This document shows, piece after piece, positions 8,912-58,543 of a stretch of DNA of 64,000 nt (positions are counted from its first letter, which is position 1; each line of letters begins with the position of its first letter). The stretch covers positions 1 through 64,000 of IMG/VR virus record IMGVR_UViG_3300037067_006044; one strand, given 5' to 3'. This stretch comes from a virus. Lineage: Duplodnaviria; Caudoviricetes. A program made the translations under genes and the position numbers. The notes under the pieces are model-generated. The model had not been told where the DNA came from, made no database searches, and worked only from the letters and a program-made list of their open reading frames with translations.

Positions 8912-9230
8912 AATGAAAACTAAAAAGAAAGAAGAAGTTATCTTTGTCGAACAAGATGGGGAAATAATTCCTATTGACGACTCTAATGAATATCAAAATA
9001 AATGGAATGAAAAAGGAATTATTTTTAGAAAATTAAAAAGAAACAATAAATCAAATAAAGTCAAAAAGTATGGAAACAATTAGTTTACTTAAAATTAAAT
9101 TTAAAGATTTATTTATTGGAATGAAAGTGCAAGATAATAATGGGAGAATAGTAAAAGAATGTAAAAAAATTAATAGATTTGTTTAATTAAAATAAAAATT
9201 ATAATATTTATAAACTTAAAATTTAAAAAC

Positions 9231-9899
9231 ATGACAATACAGCAATTAATAGCATCTGGTAAACCAGAACAAGCATTAAATCAATTACCAAATTCATCTG
9301 AAGTTGTTTTGCTTAAATCACGATTTTACACTCTTAAAACAAATATAAATTTAGGATTAATTAGTAATGAAGAATATAATAGAGAATTAGCAAAAATTAA
9401 TTATTCTATTTTATCTTTATGTAGAAATGATAATGATGTGGAATATGTAGGAGAAGTAAAGCAAATTAGTAATAATCCAAAAGATATTTTATCAGAAATT
9501 ATTATTAATAATAAACGAAGAAGAACAGACATTTCAGATAGAGCGCAGACTATTTTAATTCAATATAATCAATATGAACAAGAAAAACTATTAAATCCTT
9601 CTTATGATATTGTTGGTAGAAGATTAAAAAATTTAAATGAACAAGTCAATGCTCTTCAATTAGAACTACAGGAACAAAAAGAAGAATCATTGGAAGAAAT
9701 AGTTGAAAAAATAAATATATTAATATCAGAAACAATTCCTTCTTATATTCATTTAAAAGAAGCTTATAAATTATCTTCTGGTAGAGGAATGAAAGATAGT
9801 TGGATTGAAGACCAATTAAATAATACTCCAAATGATAATGAAGTTAGAATTGGAATTGCTGAAAAAATAGAATTATTTATATCTAAATTAAATAAATAA
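9231..9899 (+). CDS. Effector-associated domain 11 (EAD11) protein with helical C-terminal region
   Basis: IQQLIASGKPEQAL...VVLLKSRF...LGLISNEEYNRELAKINYSILSL fits the EAD11 pattern as recalled. Confidence 0.75.
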   Translation: MTIQQLIASGKPEQALNQLPNSSEVVLLKSRFYTLKTNINLGLISNEEYNRELAKINYSILSLCRNDNDVEYVGEVKQISNNPKDILSEIIINNKRRRTDISDRAQTILIQYNQYEQEKLLNPSYDIVGRRLKNLNEQVNALQLELQEQKEESLEEIVEKINILISETIPSYIHLKEAYKLSSGRGMKDSWIEDQLNNTPNDNEVRIGIAEKIELFISKLNK

Positions 9900-10025: not shown

Positions 10026-10952
10026 ATGATAAAAAAATATGAAAATACTATATTTGAAGATGACAATATTAATATACTAAGAAATCTTCCTTCAAATATA
10101 GTTGATTTAATTTGTATTGATCCTCCTTACAACATTTCAAAAGACTATTGGGACATATTTAAAACCAAAGAAGAATATCTTTTATTTATAATTGAAAGAA
10201 TAAAAGAATCAATAAGAGTATTAAAACCAAATGGTTCATTTTATATTTTTCATAATGATTATTTAGTATTAAATGAAATAGTAAATCTTATATTAAAAGA
10301 AACTACCTTAGAATTTAAACAATTTATTACATGGAATAAAAGATTTAAAGATTCTAAGAATAAAGGATTTTTAGATGGTTATGTTTGTTTGACAGCAAAT
10401 AAAAACTATCAAAAGATGGCAGAATATATTGTTTATTTTACCAATACAGAATATAAAAAAGATTTAAATGAATATTTTCAATTATTAGGAAAATCAATCG
10501 GCGGGACTAAGAAAATAAACGAATTTTATGGTCACAGAAAATATGAAAATTGCTTTGTTGATATTGATAAACCTTATTGGTATTTAATGAATGAAGAATT
10601 ATATAATCAATTATTTCAAGATTTTAAAACTAAATTAGAATCATTTAATAAAAGAGAATATAAAGAATTAAAAACATTAACTTATAATAATCAAAATAAT
10701 TCGCATTCAGTTTGGGATTATGATATTGCATCAAAAGAAATTCATATCACTCCAAAACCAATAGATTTATTAAAAAATATAATACTTCATAGTTCAGATG
10801 AAAACGATTTATGTATGGATTATTTTGCTGGTACTGGTAGTTTTGGTAAAGCATGTGTTCAAACTAATAGAAAATATATTCTTATTGAAAGAGATAAAAA
10901 CTATATTGAATATATAAACAAAGAACTGAAAAATAAATTGTTTGAATTTTAA
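10026..10952 (+). CDS. N4/N6 DNA methyltransferase, beta class
   Basis: DPPY, HITPKP, DYFAGTGS; ends KNKLFEF. Confidence 0.93.
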   Translation: MIKKYENTIFEDDNINILRNLPSNIVDLICIDPPYNISKDYWDIFKTKEEYLLFIIERIKESIRVLKPNGSFYIFHNDYLVLNEIVNLILKETTLEFKQFITWNKRFKDSKNKGFLDGYVCLTANKNYQKMAEYIVYFTNTEYKKDLNEYFQLLGKSIGGTKKINEFYGHRKYENCFVDIDKPYWYLMNEELYNQLFQDFKTKLESFNKREYKELKTLTYNNQNNSHSVWDYDIASKEIHITPKPIDLLKNIILHSSDENDLCMDYFAGTGSFGKACVQTNRKYILIERDKNYIEYINKELKNKLFEF

Positions 10953-14903: not shown

Positions 14904-17900
14904 ATGATATATACAAGAGAACAAGTATATGAATCAACTTTAGAATATTTTAAAAATGATGAATTGGCAACTAAAACATGGATTAATAAATATTGTTTAA
15001 AAGATTCAAATGGAAATTTATATGAATTAAATCCGGATGACACAATTAGACGAAATGCTAAAGAATTTGCAAGAATTGAAAGTAAATATCCAAATGGATT
15101 ATCTGAAACCGATATATATGAATTATTTAAAGATTTTAAATATATAGTTCCACAAGGTGGTTCATTGTCTGGGGTCGGAAATGATTTTCAATATACAAGT
15201 CTTTCGAACTGTTTCGTTGTGGGGAATGAATACGATAGTTATGGTGGGTTATTATTGACTGATCAGGAACAAGTTCAATTAATGAAACGTAGAGGAGGTT
15301 GCACCGAAGAAAATACAAATGTATTTATTAAGGATAAAGGATTAATGCATATTAAAGATGTATTAATTGGTGATTTAATTTTATCAAAAAATGATAAAAC
15401 AGGACAAGTTGAATTTAATACTATTATTGATAAATTTGAAGCCGATGTTAAATTAGAAGAGCAAGTTAAAATAACTTATAATAATGGAACAATAATAGAA
15501 ACTTCTATTAATCATCCAATAATGTCTATTGATAATAATGGTGATTATTATTATGATAAAATAATAGATAATTTAAATGTTGATAAATTTGGTATAATAT
15601 CACATACAAATCAAAATATATATGATTATGATAATCAATTATCCGATATCGGTTGGTTTACTGGGATGCATTTTGGTGATGGTACAGCAGATTTAAAAGG
15701 ATATGATAAAAAAACAGTAAGATTTAGAATTAATGGAGATGAAGAAAATTGTATTAAACATTATGGTGATATAGTAAATAATTTAACTGAATCAAATGTT
15801 AATTATAAAATATCAAGCAGAAAAGATTATAAAGTAAAAGTGTGGGAATATAATATATGTAATAAAAATGTAAATTCTATTTGTGAAAAATATTTAGATA
15901 ATCAAATAGGAAGTAAAGTATATATTGGCAAAACATCATCTTTTATAAAACAAAATAATTTATGGATGCCATTTATTTCCGGATTAATTGATTCTGATGG
16001 ACATATAAATGAAACTGGTTCAATTGACATAAGTATATGTATGAAAAATGTTATAGATGATATATGTTCAATATTATCATCCAATGGTATAGATTTTAAT
16101 GTTACAAAACGAACTCCAAAAAGAATTAATGAAAGTATTGTATATAGATTAACTATATATTTGAGAAATGAAATATTTATTAATGAAATTTTAAAAAATT
16201 TACACAATCTAAATAAACAATCTAAATTAACATCAATAATAAATAATGACAATAAAGAATCTCATTATTTATTTAAAAAAGATTTGCCAATAACATCAAT
16301 TGAAATAAACAATATTGTAGAATTAACAACAAATTATATAAAAAACAATTCAGTAACAAATAATTTTTATAATTCTTTTAAGTATGTAAATAAAACAAAA
16401 AGAATAGGATTAGCATTTTTAACTTCATTATATAATAATAATATAATCGATTTGAAATTATATAATAAAATTAATGAACGTATTAAAATAAAACAAATTG
16501 AATATATAACAGATATTAAAAAACGTTATATTGATATTGTTGTTGATCAAAATCATAATTATTTTGCTGGAAATTTTGGATTAATAAATATTCATAATTG
16601 CGGTCATGATTTATCACATATTAGACCTAAAGGAAGTCCTGTTTTAAATAGTGCTTTAACATCAACTGGTGTTGTTCCATTTATGGAAAGATTTTCTAAT
16701 TCTACCAGAGAAGTAGCACAAGACGGAAGACGTGGAGCTCTTATGTTAAGTATTCATGTAAAATCTATAGATTGTGAAGATTTTCTAAGTGCTAAATTAG
16801 ACACATCTAAAATAACCGGTGCCAATATATCTGTTAAATTAGATGATGAATTCATGAATTGTTTATTAAATAATAAAAGTTATATTCAAAGATTTCCAAT
16901 AGAGGACAACACAATATTATCAGAAGAATTTATAAATAATTTAGAATTTAATAAGATTATTAAACTTGAAAATAATACATTAATTAAGAAAATAGAACCT
17001 AAGAAAATTTGGGATAAATTAATTCATAATAATTGGAAATCAGCAGAACCAGGTGTAATGTTTTGGGATACAATGATAAGAAATAGTACCCCAGATAAAT
17101 ATAAAGATTTTGGATTTAAAACTGTTTCAACTAATCCATGTGTAATAGGAGATACTCTTGTATTAACTAATAAAGGATGGATTAAAATAAAAAATTTAAC
17201 TGAATTATATAAAACGACAAATTTTAAAATATTAACAACTAATATTAGTAATAATTTAACTTTTTCTGATTTAGAGTGGTGTGGTATAACCAAAAAACAA
17301 GATGAATTATATTGTATTACTTTTTCTAATGGTAGTTATTTAATATGTAATGATAAACATAAATTATATGACGAAAATTATAATGAAATTATTGCCATAA
17401 ATTCTGTAGGAATAAAATTATATAAGAGTTGTAATTATAAAGAAATTGTTTTTGTTGAAACTATAACTAAATTAGATTATAAAGAAGATGTTTATGATTT
17501 AACTGCAAATCCAAATTATAATTTTTTTAGTTATTTAGGAGAAGAATGTTGGAATGAAGATTTAAATATTGAAATCACAGAAACAAATAATATAACAGAA
17601 TTAAAATTTGATTCATCGAAATTAAACAATAAAAGAGATGAAATTGTCATATATCATAATTTCTTAAATAGTTTATTGTCAGTGGATTGTGGAGAAATTC
17701 CGCTTTGTCCATATGATTCGTGTAGATTATTTGTATTAAATTTATATAGTTATGTAGAAAATCCATTTACAAAAAATGCTAAATTTAATTTTAAATTGTT
17801 TGATATTCATGTTCAATATGCACAACGATTCATGGACGATTTAATTGATTTAGAAATTGAAAAAATTGACAAAATATTAGAAAAAATAGAAAAAGACCCA

Positions 17901-19325
17901 GAAGATGAATTTACAAAATTGATTGAAAAGAATCTTTGGATTAAAATTAAAGAAAAAGCAATTCAAGGACGAAGAACTGGATTAGGTACAACTTCTTTAG
18001 GTGATTGTATTGCTGCATTAAATATAAAATTCGGAACAGATGAAGCCAATAAACAAATAAAAGAAATTTATACTCATAAAGCTATTAATGAATATAAATC
18101 GTCTGTAATAATGGCAAAAGAAAGAGGAGTATTTCCAATATACAATTCAGAATTAGAAAAAGATGACGATTTTATTAATTTTATTCTAAGTTTAGATACA
18201 GAATTAAAAGATTTATATGGTCAATACGGCAGAAGAAATATTTCAATATCTACAAATTCTCCCACAGGAACAATTTCTCTTATGACTCAAACAACTTCTG
18301 GAATAGAACCTTGTTTTTTACCTTATTATAAAAGAAGAAGAAAAATAAATCCCAATGACAAAAATGCTAAAATAGATTTTGTTGATCAAAATGGAGATTC
18401 TTGGGAAGAATATAGTGTGTTACATCACAAATTTAAAACATTTATAGAAATAGTTCATCCTGAATTAGATGTATATATATTAACAGATAAACAATTAAAA
18501 GAATTATATGAATCTTCTCCTTATTATGGAGCATGTGCAAATGATATTGATAGTTTAAAAAGTGTAGAAATGCAAGGAATAATTCAATCATATATTTCTC
18601 ATTCTATATCAAAAACATGCGGATTACCAGAAACAAGTACAGAACAAGATATTAGCAATTTATATTTTGATGCTTGGAAACACGGATGCAAAGGATTTAC
18701 TATTTATAGAGAAGGGAGCCGCTCAGGTGTTTTAATTTCTAATGACAAAAAACAAGAAACTGAAATTCAAATAAAGGTAAATGATGCCCCTAAAAGACCA
18801 AAAGAATTAAAAACAGATGTTATTAGATTTACTAATAATAAGGAACAATGGATTGGTTTTGTAGGATTATTAGATAATCATCCTTATGAAATATTTACTG
18901 GTAGATTTAATGATTTTCCCGTTCCTTTATATGTTGAAAAAGGCATTGTAAGTAAAATAAAAGATAACGGACATGGAAGTAGATATGATTTTACTTATAT
19001 TGATAAAGATGGATTTGAAGTTATAATGCAAGGTTTAAATCGTGTATTTGACAGAGAATGTTGGAATTATGCTAAATTCTTATCTGCTCTTCTTAGACAT
19101 GGAACTCCTCAACAATATATAGTTAAAATTGTAGAAACTCTTAAATTTGAAAATGATATTGAATTAATAATGACTAATTGGAAAAAAGGTGTTATTAGAA
19201 TTCTAAAAAAATATATTAAAGAAGGAGTTGAATCAGGAGAAAAATGTCCAGAATGTGGGTCTAAATTAGTTTATAAAGAAGGGTGCGTAGGATGCTCTCA
19301 ATGCAGTTATTCAAAGTGCGGATAA
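14904..19325 (+). CDS. nrdJ: Class II (adenosylcobalamin-dependent) ribonucleotide reductase with two inteins
   Basis: SLSNCFV, QDGRRGALM, STNP/CGE, RRTGLG, PTGTISLM, SGIEP, KGFTIYREGSR; C-terminal TSCPD-like region and Zn ribbon. Confidence 0.95.
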   Translation: MIYTREQVYESTLEYFKNDELATKTWINKYCLKDSNGNLYELNPDDTIRRNAKEFARIESKYPNGLSETDIYELFKDFKYIVPQGGSLSGVGNDFQYTSLSNCFVVGNEYDSYGGLLLTDQEQVQLMKRRGGCTEENTNVFIKDKGLMHIKDVLIGDLILSKNDKTGQVEFNTIIDKFEADVKLEEQVKITYNNGTIIETSINHPIMSIDNNGDYYYDKIIDNLNVDKFGIISHTNQNIYDYDNQLSDIGWFTGMHFGDGTADLKGYDKKTVRFRINGDEENCIKHYGDIVNNLTESNVNYKISSRKDYKVKVWEYNICNKNVNSICEKYLDNQIGSKVYIGKTSSFIKQNNLWMPFISGLIDSDGHINETGSIDISICMKNVIDDICSILSSNGIDFNVTKRTPKRINESIVYRLTIYLRNEIFINEILKNLHNLNKQSKLTSIINNDNKESHYLFKKDLPITSIEINNIVELTTNYIKNNSVTNNFYNSFKYVNKTKRIGLAFLTSLYNNNIIDLKLYNKINERIKIKQIEYITDIKKRYIDIVVDQNHNYFAGNFGLINIHNCGHDLSHIRPKGSPVLNSALTSTGVVPFMERFSNSTREVAQDGRRGALMLSIHVKSIDCEDFLSAKLDTSKITGANISVKLDDEFMNCLLNNKSYIQRFPIEDNTILSEEFINNLEFNKIIKLENNTLIKKIEPKKIWDKLIHNNWKSAEPGVMFWDTMIRNSTPDKYKDFGFKTVSTNPCVIGDTLVLTNKGWIKIKNLTELYKTTNFKILTTNISNNLTFSDLEWCGITKKQDELYCITFSNGSYLICNDKHKLYDENYNEIIAINSVGIKLYKSCNYKEIVFVETITKLDYKEDVYDLTANPNYNFFSYLGEECWNEDLNIEITETNNITELKFDSSKLNNKRDEIVIYHNFLNSLLSVDCGEIPLCPYDSCRLFVLNLYSYVENPFTKNAKFNFKLFDIHVQYAQRFMDDLIDLEIEKIDKILEKIEKDPEDEFTKLIEKNLWIKIKEKAIQGRRTGLGTTSLGDCIAALNIKFGTDEANKQIKEIYTHKAINEYKSSVIMAKERGVFPIYNSELEKDDDFINFILSLDTELKDLYGQYGRRNISISTNSPTGTISLMTQTTSGIEPCFLPYYKRRRKINPNDKNAKIDFVDQNGDSWEEYSVLHHKFKTFIEIVHPELDVYILTDKQLKELYESSPYYGACANDIDSLKSVEMQGIIQSYISHSISKTCGLPETSTEQDISNLYFDAWKHGCKGFTIYREGSRSGVLISNDKKQETEIQIKVNDAPKRPKELKTDVIRFTNNKEQWIGFVGLLDNHPYEIFTGRFNDFPVPLYVEKGIVSKIKDNGHGSRYDFTYIDKDGFEVIMQGLNRVFDRECWNYAKFLSALLRHGTPQQYIVKIVETLKFENDIELIMTNWKKGVIRILKKYIKEGVESGEKCPECGSKLVYKEGCVGCSQCSYSKCG
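15300..16598 (+). mobile_element. Intein 1 in NrdJ, 433 aa, with LAGLIDADG homing endonuclease
   Basis: RRGG|CTEENT...TSINH...GMHFGDG...GLIDSDG...YIDIVVD..HNYF..IHN|CGHDLS. Confidence 0.92.
17139..17687 (+). mobile_element. Intein 2 in NrdJ, 183-aa mini-intein ending in Asp
   Basis: STNP|CVIGDT...NDKH...VYDLTANPNYNFF...LLSVD|CGEIPL. Confidence 0.85.
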
Positions 19326-19437
19326 CCAACGACTTATATAATAATGAAGGGATATAATAATTACTTGTATCTCTTTTTTAATTTATATTTTTATATTTAT
19401 ATTTTTAAAAACAAACTTAAAATCATTAAATTTTTAA

Positions 19438-20490
19438 ATGGAAACAGAAATATCATCTAATAAGAATGATTGGAAATGGCAACTCAAAAACTCCATTACT
19501 ACATTAGAACAGTTGAAACAAATAATAGAATTATCAGAAGAAGAGTTAGAAATCTTTAATAAAAATATCAATCTTCCATTTAAAATTACTCCTTATTATT
19601 CACAATTATTAAAATACCCAGAAATAAGAAAGACAGTTATTCCTTCTATTTTTGAATTGAATAAATATGATTATGAATATAATGATCCACTTAATGAAGA
19701 CAAATATAAAGTTACTAAAAATCTAATTCATAAATATCCTGATAGAGTATTACTTCTTTCTAATACCAATTGCTCAGTCAATTGCAGGTTTTGCACCAGA
19801 AGTAGATTAGTAGATAAAGAAAATTATACTTTAAAAGATTTTGAAGAATCATTTGAATATATAAAACAAAATACTCAGATTAGAGATGTTATTCTTTCTG
19901 GTGGGGATTTTCTTATGAATTCTAATAAAACAATAATTTATATTTTAGATAGATTAAAGAAAATAGAACATGTTGAAATTATTAGGATTGGAACTAAAAT
20001 ACCAATTGTCCTTCCTCAAAGAATTGATAATGAATTATTAAGTATTTTAGATGATTATAAACCTCTTTATATGAGTATTCATTGTACTCATCCAAAAGAA
20101 ATAACAAATGAAGTTAAAAAAGCATGTAATAGATTAGCTGATATTGGAATTGTTCTTAGAAGTCAAACAGTATTATTAAAAGATGTTAATGACAATTTAG
20201 AAACAATTAAAACATTAATGCATGAATTATTAAAGATTAGAGTTTCTCCTTATTATATTTATAGTTTAGATGAAATACAAGGAACAGAACATTTCAAAGT
20301 ACCGGTTAAAAAAGGAATTGAAATTATTAAAGGTTTAATTGGAAATACTTCCGGATTCGCTATTCCTCAATTTATAATTGATACAAGTATTGGTAAAATA
20401 CCTATTAATCCTTGTTTTTATAAAGAAGAGAATGGATATGTAGTATTACAGAATTATAAAGGAGAAGAAGTAAGATATAAAGACATATAA
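19438..20490 (+). CDS. kamA: Lysine 2,3-aminomutase-family radical SAM enzyme (KamA/EpmB)
   Basis: WKWQL, HKYPDR, CSVNCRFC, VILSGGD, RIGTK, HCTHPKE, QTVLLKDVND, PYY, GKIP. Confidence 0.9.
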   Translation: METEISSNKNDWKWQLKNSITTLEQLKQIIELSEEELEIFNKNINLPFKITPYYSQLLKYPEIRKTVIPSIFELNKYDYEYNDPLNEDKYKVTKNLIHKYPDRVLLLSNTNCSVNCRFCTRSRLVDKENYTLKDFEESFEYIKQNTQIRDVILSGGDFLMNSNKTIIYILDRLKKIEHVEIIRIGTKIPIVLPQRIDNELLSILDDYKPLYMSIHCTHPKEITNEVKKACNRLADIGIVLRSQTVLLKDVNDNLETIKTLMHELLKIRVSPYYIYSLDEIQGTEHFKVPVKKGIEIIKGLIGNTSGFAIPQFIIDTSIGKIPINPCFYKEENGYVVLQNYKGEEVRYKDI

Positions 20491-20501
20491 AAAAGAAAAA
20501 G

Positions 20502-20531
20502 AAAGTCTATAATTTAATAGTTATAGACTTT
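20502..20531. terminator. Bidirectional terminator between convergent units
   Basis: 11-bp stem aaagtctataa/ttatagacttt with A and T tracts; near-copy of 472-501. Confidence 0.75.
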
Positions 20532-20682
20532 TTTGATTTTATTTTCTTTTCTTATGTTTCCCTGGTAATAATTTTTTTGCATAAGCTCTCAATTGGTTTT
20601 GGTTCAACATATTCCAATTGATATTTTATGTCTTCTTCTATTAACTTCATTAATTTTTCTTTTTGTTCTTGTTTCATGATTT

Positions 20683-21051
20683 TTATTTTAAATTTTGTTT
20701 AATATTTTCTAATATATTTACCACTTTATCAAATTGTTCTTTCAATTTTGCATATTTTGCTCCTTCACTATTTTTAGAAATATAATTTGATTTCCATCTT
20801 TCAAATTTAGTATTTCCTAATTCTTCCATTTCTTTATAATCTTTTGTTATTTCGTTAAAAAATGGTTCGACATCAATTTCGATTCCATTGATTTTCATTT
20901 CAATATCAAGTTCTCCAGTTTGTTGAAAATGATCATTACATATTTGAGATGAATTTGTGTCATTGGTATTAGTGAAAACAATATAAGTTAATAAATCTTC
21001 TATTGTTCTTCCATAATTTCTATCTAAGTAATTTCTAAATTGAATTTTCAT
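20683..21051 (-). CDS. Hypothetical protein
   Basis: Minus-strand operon. Confidence 0.65.
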   Translation of the reverse strand: MKIQFRNYLDRNYGRTIEDLLTYIVFTNTNDTNSSQICNDHFQQTGELDIEMKINGIEIDVEPFFNEITKDYKEMEELGNTKFERWKSNYISKNSEGAKYAKLKEQFDKVVNILENIKQNLK

Positions 21052-53322: not shown

Positions 53323-55017
53323 ATGGTAATTTGCAAAATTTGTAATGAAGAATTTGAAAATTATGCTTTCTTATCTTCACACATTAGATTTAAACATAAA
53401 ATGACTTCTTATGATTATAGTTTGAAATACGATTATAATGGAGAAATTCATAAATGTAAGTGTGGGTGTGGTCAAGAAACTAAATGGTTTAATATCAATA
53501 TCGGTTTTTATGATTTTGTAAAAGGTCATGACAATACTTTTAGACATCAACAATTATTAATTAAAAAAGTTTGTATTATTTGTGGAACAGAATTTAAAAC
53601 AAAAAATAAAGATAAAGTTATTTGCACTAAAAGAGAATGTTATCAAAAAGATTTATATAATAGAACTCACGAAATAAGAACTTGTCCTTGTGGAGAAAAA
53701 TTCGAATGTTCTAAAACATCACCTCAAATATATCATTCTTTTGAATGTAGTAGAAAAGACCCAGCAATGTGGGAAAAAATGAGACAAACATTAATTGAAA
53801 CATATGGTGTTGACAATTATTCTAAAACAGAAGAGTTTAAAGAATGTGCAAGAGAAAATTCATATTTTAAAACAGAGGAATTTCAAGTAAAAGCTAAGAA
53901 AACAAAAGAAGAACGATATGATGATGAAAATTATAATAATAGACCAAAAGCAGTAAATAGTAATTTAAAATTTTATTTTAATAATTTATTTACTTCTGAT
54001 AGATTAAAGAACTTGGTTACTCCATTATTTACTATTGATGATTATAAAGGAGTAGATAAAATATATCAATTTAAATGTAATAGATGCGATAATATATTTG
54101 AATCCAATTTATTTCATATTCCAAGATGTTTAGAATGTTTTCCATTTAAAAAAAATACATCTGAAGGAGAGATTGAATTATTTAATTATATTAAATCATT
54201 AATTCCAAATGAAAATATTATACAAAACGATATAAAAACATTACCAAATAATTTAGAAATTGATATATATATTCCTAATTTAAATATTGCATTTGAATAT
54301 AATGGAATATATTGGCATAGTGCAAAATTTAAAAATTATAATTATCATAAATGGAAATATGAAAAATGCAAAGAACAAAATATTCAATTAATTCAAATAT
54401 TTGAAAATGAATGGATTTTTAAAAAAGAAATTGTAAAGTCAATTATTAAAAACAAATTAAAATTAATAAAGAATAAAATATATGCGAGAAAATGTGAAAT
54501 TAAAGAAATAAATAGTCAAGAATCAAATAGTTTTTTATTTGATAATCATATTCAAGGAATAGTAAACACACAATATAAATTCGGATTATTTTATAATGAC
54601 AAATTAATTTCATTGATGACAATTGGAAAATCAAGATTTGATAAAAAATATGAATATGAAATAATACGATTCTGTAATAAAATAAATTATTCTATTATTG
54701 GTGGATTTAATAAACTTTTATCTTATTTCATTAAAACATATAATCCAAATTCTATAATCAGTTATGTTGATAAAAGATATTTTACTGGGAATATGTATAA
54801 TCAAACAGATTTTAAATTAATAGAATCATATAATAAACCAAATTATTTTTATTTTAAAGGATATGAAATGTATAATAGAATTGAATTCCAAAAACATAAA
54901 TTAAAAGATAAATTAGAAATATACGATGAAAATCTAACAGAATGGCAAAATATGGAATTAAATGGATATAATAAAATTTATGATTGTGGAAATTTTAAAT
55001 ATGTCTGGGAAAAATAA
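53323..55017 (+). CDS. Free-standing homing endonuclease, Hef-like (Zn fingers plus Vsr/PD-(D/E)xK-like domain)
   Basis: C2H2 start, CKCGCG, YGVDNY, EIDIYIP..IAFEYNGIYWHS, IYARKC, NHIQG, YVDKRY, IYDCG. Confidence 0.8.
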   Translation: MVICKICNEEFENYAFLSSHIRFKHKMTSYDYSLKYDYNGEIHKCKCGCGQETKWFNINIGFYDFVKGHDNTFRHQQLLIKKVCIICGTEFKTKNKDKVICTKRECYQKDLYNRTHEIRTCPCGEKFECSKTSPQIYHSFECSRKDPAMWEKMRQTLIETYGVDNYSKTEEFKECARENSYFKTEEFQVKAKKTKEERYDDENYNNRPKAVNSNLKFYFNNLFTSDRLKNLVTPLFTIDDYKGVDKIYQFKCNRCDNIFESNLFHIPRCLECFPFKKNTSEGEIELFNYIKSLIPNENIIQNDIKTLPNNLEIDIYIPNLNIAFEYNGIYWHSAKFKNYNYHKWKYEKCKEQNIQLIQIFENEWIFKKEIVKSIIKNKLKLIKNKIYARKCEIKEINSQESNSFLFDNHIQGIVNTQYKFGLFYNDKLISLMTIGKSRFDKKYEYEIIRFCNKINYSIIGGFNKLLSYFIKTYNPNSIISYVDKRYFTGNMYNQTDFKLIESYNKPNYFYFKGYEMYNRIEFQKHKLKDKLEIYDENLTEWQNMELNGYNKIYDCGNFKYVWEK

Positions 55018-56734: not shown

Positions 56735-58543
56735 ATGAAATGTAAATTTTGTCAAGAAGAAATTAAAGAAGGAAAAGAATATTGTAATAGAACATGTTTT
56801 AATAATCACAGAAAAGAATTATATTATAAAATTGTAAAATGTTTAAATTGTACTAATACAATACAAATAAAAAAAACAAATAATCATACTAAATTCTGTT
56901 GTAATAATTGTAAAAAAGAATTTGCAAATAAACAATATAAACACAAAAAAATATGCAAAAACTGCAGCAGAGAATTTGAATTATATAAATCAGAAACATT
57001 GATATTTTGTTGTCATGCTTGTAGATGCGAATATGATAGAAAACAATTTAGAGAAGACAGAATTTGTAAAAAATGTGGAAACACATTTAACACATTTAAA
57101 AGTAGTGATCAAGAATTTTGTACTCATGAATGTTATATTGAATATATAAAAGAAATAACAAAAATAAAATATGATACAGAATTTTCAAATTGTTTATTAT
57201 GTGGAGAAAAAATAAGATTAAATGAAAAATTTTGTTGTAAGGCACATAAAGAAAAATATTATTCACAAAAAAGCAGAGAAATAAGAATATGTGAATGTGG
57301 TAGAGAATTTGAAGTGTATAAAAAAGATTCAAAATTTTTATGTTCTGATGAATGTCAAAAAAAATATATTCTAAAACCAGAAGTTTTGGATAAGATAAAA
57401 GAAAAACGTGCAATCACTTCTAATTTCAATAATTATAATGCAAGAATAGACAAAATAAAATCTTTAAATTTATTTGATTTTGATTGTTCGGAAGAAGAGT
57501 ATAAATCCAATAAAAATATTAAATTAAAATGTAAAAAATGTGGATATGAATTTGAAGAAAAAATTAATTTAAATCATTTGCCAAGTTGTATAAAATGTAA
57601 TCCTATTCCATATATATTATCTAAACCAGAAGAAGAATTAAGTGATTATATACATTCTATAATAAATAAAAATATAATAGAAAATAAAAGAACAATTATA
57701 AGACCTTTAGAATTAGATTTTTATCTACCAGATTATAATTTAGCTATTGAATTTGATGGTTGTTATTGGCATAGTGAAATTCATGGACATAAAGATAAAA
57801 AATATCATATTAATAAAACTAAAATGTGTGAATCCCAAGGAATTCAATTAATTCATATATTTGATGATGAATGGACAAATAAAAAAGAAATAATTAAAAA
57901 CACAATAAAACATAAATTAAATTTAAATAATACAGATAAAATATATGCAAGAAAATGTATAATTAAAGAAATAAATTCAAAAACAAAAAATACATTTTTA
58001 AATAATAATCACATTCAAGGAGAAGATAAAAGTAAAATTAAACTCGGATTATTTTATAATGATGAATTAGTTGCAGTCATGACTTTTGGAAAATTGCGAT
58101 TAGCATTAGGAAATAAAACATCTAATATTAATGAATATGAGTTAATAAGATTTGCAACATCTAAAACAATTATTGGTGGATTTAGTAAATTATTGTCTTA
58201 TTTTATTAAAACATATAATCCAATTAAAATAACAACTTATGCTGATAAAAGATGGAGTAATGGAAATGTTTATATTAAAAACGGATTTAATCTTATACAT
58301 GAAACTCAACCAAATTATTGGTATATGAAAAATTATAGTATTAGAGAACATAGATTCAAATATAGAAAATCAGAATTACCTAAATTATTAACAAATTATA
58401 ATTCGGAATTAACTGAATGGGATAATATGCAATTAAATGGATATGATAGAATTTGGGATTGTGGTTCATTAAAATTTGAAATGAATATCTCTCAACTTAA
58501 TACTTCTGATAAAAATAATATTAACAAGCTATTCGAATTTTAA
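56735..58543 (+). CDS. Free-standing homing endonuclease, Hef-like, with tandem Cys4 Zn repeats
   Basis: Repeated CxxC...FCxxxC units; ELDFYLP..LAIEFDGCYWHS, IYARKC, YADKRW, IWDCG; paralog of 53323..55017; ends NKLFEF. Confidence 0.8.
   Translation: MKCKFCQEEIKEGKEYCNRTCFNNHRKELYYKIVKCLNCTNTIQIKKTNNHTKFCCNNCKKEFANKQYKHKKICKNCSREFELYKSETLIFCCHACRCEYDRKQFREDRICKKCGNTFNTFKSSDQEFCTHECYIEYIKEITKIKYDTEFSNCLLCGEKIRLNEKFCCKAHKEKYYSQKSREIRICECGREFEVYKKDSKFLCSDECQKKYILKPEVLDKIKEKRAITSNFNNYNARIDKIKSLNLFDFDCSEEEYKSNKNIKLKCKKCGYEFEEKINLNHLPSCIKCNPIPYILSKPEEELSDYIHSIINKNIIENKRTIIRPLELDFYLPDYNLAIEFDGCYWHSEIHGHKDKKYHINKTKMCESQGIQLIHIFDDEWTNKKEIIKNTIKHKLNLNNTDKIYARKCIIKEINSKTKNTFLNNNHIQGEDKSKIKLGLFYNDELVAVMTFGKLRLALGNKTSNINEYELIRFATSKTIIGGFSKLLSYFIKTYNPIKITTYADKRWSNGNVYIKNGFNLIHETQPNYWYMKNYSIREHRFKYRKSELPKLLTNYNSELTEWDNMQLNGYDRIWDCGSLKFEMNISQLNTSDKNNINKLFEF

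Follow-up and report, generated by a model that had tools for sequence, protein, structure and literature searches.

The Gene and Its EAD11 Domain

The gene under study occupies positions 9231-9899 (+ strand, stop codon included) of the window, by which we mean the whole stretch of 64,000 nucleotides that was analysed. In the list of open reading frames, it starts with ATG and encodes a protein of 222 amino acids (aa). Three parts can be distinguished, all on the + strand: an EAD11 domain (aa 1-68; 9231-9434), defined by a match to Pfam PF19964 and by a domain-only AF2 model; a variable, disordered linker (aa 69-82; 9435-9476), recognized by its low pLDDT and from the alignment; and a conserved, helical C-terminal domain (CTD; aa 83-222; 9477-9896), delimited by an alignment of 72 sequences and by the AF2 model. 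The family alignment as a whole falls into the same three parts (1-68, 69-82 and 83-222).

An earlier note on this DNA, made from the letters and their translations, had assigned the first ~65 residues to EAD11 and named a search with the Pfam profile as a check. When this search was carried out, the PF19964 profile HMM matched the 222-aa protein with 44.5 bits (gathering cut-off 26, E 1.5e-11), and the assignment was confirmed. The match spans residues 2-64 and covers positions 5-76 of the 80 in the profile. When the entire record was searched in six frames, EAD11 was found at the same site (47.6 bits), and this was the single EAD11 in 101.6 kb. Pfam also detected the domain in 72 of the 72 aligned full-length homologues, and the window copy retains the positions that are conserved in bacterial EAD11 domains (I3, L6, G10, A15, L19, L28, R31, G42, and I56). 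Therefore, the EAD11 call is not an artefact of composition.

Apart from EAD11, no Pfam family scored above threshold in the 222-aa protein. There was no significant match to PHROGs, and none of the families in the PADLOC-DB 2.0 defence-system models was hit; host-type EAD11-TIR proteins do match TIR/ThsB-type models of that database. The earlier statement that no recognizable enzyme accompanies EAD11 thus agrees with the Pfam results, both for the window protein and for the 72 homologues.

The Phage Genome and the Gene Neighbourhood

The window covers the initial 64 kb of an IMG/VR record of 101,564 bp, which is ~36% complete according to CheckV and has a GC content of 21.5%. Genes for a DnaB-like helicase, an NAD-dependent DNA ligase, a 5'-3' exonuclease, a T4 Rnl1-type RNA ligase, and DNA methyltransferases were found. 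This bacteriophage-type gene content bears out the phage origin of the record, which is a fragment of a jumbo phage. In isolated phages, the closest helicases, only ~40% identical, are those of Microcystis phage Mel-JY01, a 484-kb uncultured phage, and the Flavobacterium "immuto" phages. The only sequencing run that contains the stretch is a groundwater metagenome, probably the source sample; no RNA run was listed for it, which has no bearing on whether the gene is expressed. Shine-Dalgarno sequences are not enriched before the genes (3.6% compared with a background of 5.4%), which fits a Bacteroidota-type host but is no proof of one.

The gene lies in a block of genes on the same strand, in the order DnaB helicase, Rnl1 RNA ligase, three small ORFs, a 147-bp gap, the EAD11+CTD gene, a 126-bp gap, and an N6/N4 DNA methyltransferase. 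The upstream intergenic region (147 bp, 9084-9230, + strand) has no Shine-Dalgarno sequence. It contains ATATTTATA (9204-9212), a 9/10 match to TATATTTATA, a motif that recurs before genes of this phage; at 21% GC, such a near-match is weak evidence of a signal. Scans for sigma-70 promoters and terminators around the EAD11+CTD gene gave results no better than those for shuffled sequences.

Directly downstream lies the N6_N4_Mtase DNA methyltransferase (10026-10952, + strand), whose protein sequence ends in ...KLFEF. A methyltransferase is also the next downstream gene of the family member on another phage contig (L011:10800-11624; phrog_3820/MTS, E 5e-83); the two enzymes belong to different families and the two phages are unrelated. 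On a third contig (L008), the family member is followed by a gene for a nucleoside 2-deoxyribosyltransferase-like protein. Counter-defence is a classical function of both Rnl1-type RNA ligases and orphan methyltransferases. The neighbourhood of the window gene fits a counter-defence role, of which it is weak evidence.

Distribution of the EAD11+CTD Family

HMMER was run exhaustively against 1.84 billion cluster representatives and yielded 133 matches. Some 90 of these have lengths of 216-263 aa and could be aligned end to end, with identities of 24-47%; the EAD11+CTD family comprises ~100 metagenomic clusters. All 20 members that were traced by exact sequence came from metagenome assemblies, and none of the 20 has an NCBI accession. 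A tblastn search of 50,697 GenBank phage records with three divergent members gave no match, and scanning 185,579 species genomes by pattern revealed no relative.

We also used a profile of the CTD alone. As a positive control, it recovered the window gene with an E-value of 1.9e-62. In five Saprospiraceae genomes rich in EAD11 it found nothing, and the only match in 401 sampled Bacteroidota genomes was a marginal one. This match was rejected as a false positive, the protein being a TPR/TM/SH3 protein, BatE-like in appearance. Hence, no true match to the CTD was found in the 406 Bacteroidota genomes searched (5 Saprospiraceae and 401 sampled).

Four members of the family lie in long sequence contexts, namely the window, L004, L008, and L011, and all four are phage. 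L004, a 50-kb contig, encodes a Gp23-type capsid protein, an SNF2 helicase, GIY-YIG, and runs of small ORFs; L008 encodes YqaJ, a VapE/BT4734-like primase, and DUF5131; and L011, a 47-kb contig, encodes Amidase_2 and GH108 endolysins together with an LPD1 polyvalent giant protein. L004, L008, and L011 each have a single EAD11 within 12-21 kb of sequence. The family contigs range from 21% to 49% GC, which indicates that the gene is spread over unrelated phages. By analogy, this sporadic occurrence in unrelated phage types resembles that of accessory conflict genes.

Two contigs deserve mention for other genes. In L011, the family member P0017 is followed, 4.5 kb further downstream, by an ORF of more than 2,152 aa (15244-20786, running past the end of the locus) that has methyltransferase and LPD1 domains. 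Such methyltransferase and LPD1 giant proteins are typical of the polyvalent proteins of phages and conjugative elements. In L013 (389-4112), the member P0033 is located between an HD_4 (RelA/SpoT-type HD) gene and a gene for full-length EF-Tu, with a C39 peptidase nearby; this contig is ambiguous and could belong to a huge phage or to a bacterium.

Several loci depart from the common arrangement. On a 7.6-kb viral contig, the member P0065 (L010:1655-2053) consists of the CTD only, with no EAD11 in any upstream frame. Two members, P0069 and P0111, have two EAD11 copies followed by the CTD. On a 3.4-kb metagenomic contig (L003), the EAD11+CTD protein P0003 (1193-1876) is encoded directly downstream of a second EAD11 gene (199-957). 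The 252-aa product of the latter has an N-terminal part of 165 aa without a known family (termed X here) and EAD11 at aa 168-243. This gene pair has the layout of the "EAD principle", and the contig may be phage. X has no relative in the window phage. A gene for a sigma-70 region-2 protein lies downstream of the pair.

Structure and Conservation of the CTD

The full-length AF2 model, built with the family alignment, has a mean pLDDT of 94.3 and shows two all-helical domains joined by a disordered linker. The pLDDT of the linker is 58-74, falling below 50 at residues 70-73, and in the 72-sequence alignment the linker varies in length and is of low complexity. The CTD contains the motifs NKRR-P, D126-x-x-GRR, VP-Y-x-L-x-EAY-L-x-GRG, and IAE-IE-F. 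All 72 sequences have the Asp at D126, and conservation reaches 90% or more at R96, P170, A178, and E214. Both domains are conserved, with a mean pairwise identity of 31% for the CTD (35% in its second half) compared with 27.6% for EAD11. The CTD is predicted to be soluble and mildly acidic (pI 5.2, family median 5.3), and it lacks a membrane segment.

No Pfam family matched the CTD in any of the 72 members, and a sequence profile search of the PDB gave nothing below an E-value of 0.1. Foldseek searches of PDB and BFVD with the full model returned nothing at E <= 0.001. In a wide search with VIA, the top matches (Z 8.2) were generic helical bundles, below the level that is meaningful for helical proteins. 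The structural look-alikes in the ESM Atlas were four-helix-bundle sensor and Hpt domains and one unnamed Bacteroidota cluster, and we treat them as generic similarity.

A model of EAD11 alone, computed from an alignment of 12 rows that included both phage and host domains, had a pLDDT of 94.3 and a pTM of 0.80. It consists of four helices (aa 3-8, 12-18, 23-40, and 46-66). Foldseek found nothing with this model, and VIA retrieved generic helical proteins (top Z 8.0). Death, DED, CARD, and PYD chains were absent from the 50 matches listed by either fold search. Their absence from these lists is still compatible with such a fold. The Death fold has six helices; the domain-only model of EAD11 shows four. 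The comparison of EAD11 with Death domains therefore remains a functional analogy from the literature (PMC7159879; PMC8195603).

The existence of CTD-only proteins and of forms with two EAD11 copies indicates that the CTD is an autonomous module, and EAD11 is the only domain with which it pairs. The window protein had been described earlier as a "stand-alone" EAD11 protein, a description that does not hold, as residues 83-222 form a conserved domain of their own. The related statement that EAD11 is fused only to a helical region was correct in that this region is helical and carries no recognizable enzyme. It understated the region, which is conserved at least as well as EAD11 and also occurs without it. 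EAD11 has been described before; what is new is the CTD and the EAD11+CTD family.

Bacterial Relatives of the Window EAD11 and the Host

In a BLAST search with the window EAD11, the 13 best matches were domains from outside the family (41-49% identity), ranked above every family member. When the non-family matches were scanned with Pfam, they proved to be mostly EAD11-TIR fusions. Matches restricted to the N-terminal part included EAD11-TIR (255-300 aa), TIR-EAD11, and EAD1-EAD11 proteins, and one protein of 1,621 aa with a receiver domain, trypsin, and multiple copies of EAD11. P0129, P0105, and P0116 are located in bacterial chromosomal contexts, two of them with the Bacteroidota markers CHU_C and Por_Secre_tail.

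The host-type loci contain EAD11-TIR and EAD11-SIR2 effectors. A Saprospiraceae MAG (GCA_040080915.1, contig JBEBHD010000011.1; L015:6260-11905) has a compact conflict locus, in which a gene for SIR2-EAD11 is followed by one for an nSTAND1 NTPase with a fused FGE-sulfatase (FGS) sensor and by two EAD11-TIR genes, all among housekeeping genes. The two EAD11-TIR genes are paralogous, and EAD11 is absent from the nSTAND1 NTPase. Neither the SIR2-EAD11 protein nor the NTPase of this locus is covered by a PADLOC model. Two further loci (L016 and L017) have solitary EAD11-TIR genes in chromosomal contexts, in L016 together with Por_Secre_tail.

P0129 is an EAD11-TIR protein and ranks among the closest matches to the window domain. 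The five named GTDB genomes with close relatives of P0129 were all Saprospiraceae, and 11-26 copies of EAD11 per genome were counted in these five compared with none in 14 control genomes. An EAD11 network of this size would be large enough to be worth attacking. These results support the view that EAD11 of the window's kind is typical of Saprospiraceae-type Bacteroidota. They do not extend to the Saprospiraceae-like host at which the earlier note hinted: the phage has 21% GC, whereas the MAG loci have 50-58% GC, and Saprospiraceae are therefore unlikely as hosts of the window phage. A Bacteroidota host does fit. L016, at 37.5% GC, indicates that Bacteroidota of lower GC content carry EAD11-TIR as well.

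A tree of 139 EAD11 domains (70 columns) was poorly resolved. In the CTD tree, the window groups with P0004, P0011, and P0029 (SH-aLRT 92). When the EAD11 tree was constrained to this grouping, the AU test did not reject it (p-AU 0.68), and the constrained tree had the higher likelihood. The idea that the window EAD11 was derived from a host or swapped was dropped, as the AU test is compatible with the CTD-sister grouping. The BLAST ranking of the 13 non-family domains is best explained by selection bias together with a short, consensus-like branch. The data are compatible with EAD11 and the CTD having travelled together.

A Predicted Role in the Jamming of EAD11-Based Immunity

EADs are predicted to gather effectors and core components by homotypic binding, a principle that was formulated, together with the analogy to Death domains, by Kaur, Burroughs, Iyer and Aravind (PMC7159879; PMC8195603). 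For bacteria, homotypic EAD-EAD binding was offered in these studies as a prediction (PMC7159879; PMC8195603). In the literature searched, we found no report of a phage-encoded EAD, nor one of an experimental test of EAD-mediated recruitment.

Like the known EAD11 domains (PF19964), the window copy is a small, all-helical, non-enzymatic terminal domain fused to another domain. The known ones come from bacterial conflict loci, whereas this one is phage-encoded, and its CTD is none of the described effector or signalling partner domains. EAD-coupled conflict systems are expected in or near NTPase-centred conflict loci of bacteria (PMC7159879), in contrast to the phage contexts of the window and of the long contigs of its relatives, and the window record (~36% complete) has neither a second EAD11 nor a core NTPase. 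A close parallel is provided by the EAD11-TIR effectors, such as MEQ1744142.1 (P0129) from a Saprospiraceae MAG. Both proteins are of similar size and consist of EAD11, a low-complexity linker, and a C-terminal domain, and the EAD11 parts are 41-49% identical. However, the phage protein has a novel helical CTD in place of TIR, and P0129 is encoded on a chromosome beside a STAND NTPase and SIR2-EAD11.

On this basis, the reading that we favour, if tentatively and at slightly less than an even chance, is that the protein is a counter-defence adaptor mimic, that is, a phage protein that imitates a host immune adaptor. The decoy idea of the earlier note is plausible, and the role we predict is the jamming or hijacking of EAD11 immune wiring. 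The phage EAD11 belongs to the kind of domain that Bacteroidota attach to their TIR and SIR2 suicide enzymes, and we infer that it docks on EAD11-tagged effectors or hubs of the host. The place of an enzyme or hub is taken by the CTD, which has been encountered only on phage contigs. The CTD might cap the effector assembly and break it up in a dominant-negative manner, or it might act as an inhibitory or sequestering module that is brought to the assembly.

Several observations favour such mimicry. The EAD11 scores above the Pfam threshold and has kept all the positions conserved in bacteria; the nearest domains outside the family are mostly those of EAD11-TIR proteins in host-type loci; the family occurs in phage contexts, and searches of bacterial genomes did not turn up its CTD; and the gene is sporadically spread over unrelated phages and has neighbours of the counter-defence type. 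Other observations speak against it. A simple decoy would not need a conserved domain of 140 aa, and the CTD-only relatives show that the CTD works without EAD11. The second EAD11 protein of L003 could mean that the partner is encoded by the phage rather than by the host. The adjacency to a methyltransferase is weak evidence, and the closeness of the window EAD11 to host domains failed the tree test.

If the CTD were a stabilizing or spacer helix bundle behind a passive EAD11-only decoy, which is the form in which the idea was first put forward, the lack of an enzyme or known fold would be expected. A spacer would hardly be more conserved than the adaptor it supports (31% compared with 27.6% identity), have an invariant Asp and several positions conserved to at least 90%, and persist in CTD-only proteins, and we regard this explanation as very unlikely. 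Conservation at least equal to that of EAD11, occurrence without EAD11, and absence from the bacteria searched argue for a function of its own rather than that of a passive decoy, and suggest an inhibitor or hijacker with a definite target, not just a plug. The same autonomy and conservation would also suit a non-enzymatic effector that the phage plugs into the EAD11 hub of the host, either turning host immunity on competing phages in a form of superinfection exclusion or controlling the timing of host death for its own benefit. Phages often carry defence genes, and the layout of N-terminal EAD11, linker, and a domain of ~140-200 aa parallels that of EAD11-TIR. An effector would, however, be expected in hosts, and none of the 406 Bacteroidota genomes searched, five of which have 11-26 EAD11 genes each, yielded the CTD. 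Nor does the protein match PADLOC, and the CTD, soluble, acidic, and free of membrane segments, has no enzyme-like fold. We consider a phage-borne effector improbable.

It is equally possible to look for the partner within the phage, with EAD11 doing no more than pairing the CTD with another phage protein and having no relation to host EAD11 immunity. The tandem of X-EAD11 and EAD11-CTD (P0003) in L003 is what such pairing would look like, and the two-EAD11 forms P0069 and P0111 and the phages with a CTD free of EAD11 can be accommodated as well. On the other hand, the window record has one EAD11 in 101.6 kb (though at ~36% completeness), L004, L008, and L011 likewise show just one EAD11 each over 12-21 kb, nothing related to X of L003 was found in the window phage, and beyond the EAD11+CTD family EAD11 is tied to immune effectors. 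A purely phage-internal partner appears unlikely to us.

Adaptor mimicry could also be framed more broadly. EAD11+CTD proteins may represent a phage-specific class of inhibitors directed against the EAD/Death-like adaptor layer, with EAD11 as the address and the CTD blocking the assembly of TIR or SIR2 effectors. This extension is conceivable but rather doubtful. Animal viruses use death-fold decoys such as vFLIP, which has a DED, and the PYD-only proteins of poxviruses. A phage inhibitor class would be their prokaryotic counterpart, following the same logic by which a virus carries the homotypic adaptor of its host without the effector enzyme. The likeness would be one of principle: no relationship in sequence or fold was detected, and the phage protein differs in having a conserved additional domain.

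According to the prediction made in 2020-2021, EAD adaptors connect effectors with sensors in bacterial immunity, much like the Death-fold domains of animals (PMC7159879; PMC8195603), and a phage protein that carries such an adaptor is a natural probe of this wiring. If the protein does bind and disable EAD11-tagged TIR or SIR2 effectors, the homotypic-adaptor model would be confirmed. The viruses of bacteria and of animals would then have arrived at adaptor mimicry convergently, and the CTD would be a new domain in a new family of anti-defence proteins. The EAD11+CTD family is well defined, short, and soluble-looking, so that its members should be easy to express and test.

Other Genes of the Window

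Some further genes of the phage are worth recording. The large subunit of the ribonucleotide reductase (RNR; 14904-19325, + strand; 1,473 aa) contains an intein that includes a homing endonuclease of the LAGLIDADG type (Pfam Intein_splicing and Hom_end). Right after it, a radical-SAM protein with the C-terminal domain of lysine-2,3-aminomutase is encoded (19438-20490, + strand), an unusual auxiliary gene for a phage. Two paralogues of ~565-600 aa (53323-55017 and 56735-58543, both + strand) gave very strong matches to phrog_3339 and phrog_559, which are annotated as "homing/HNH endonuclease". One of the two also matched the Mom family weakly, and these paralogues may be DNA-modification enzymes rather than nucleases.
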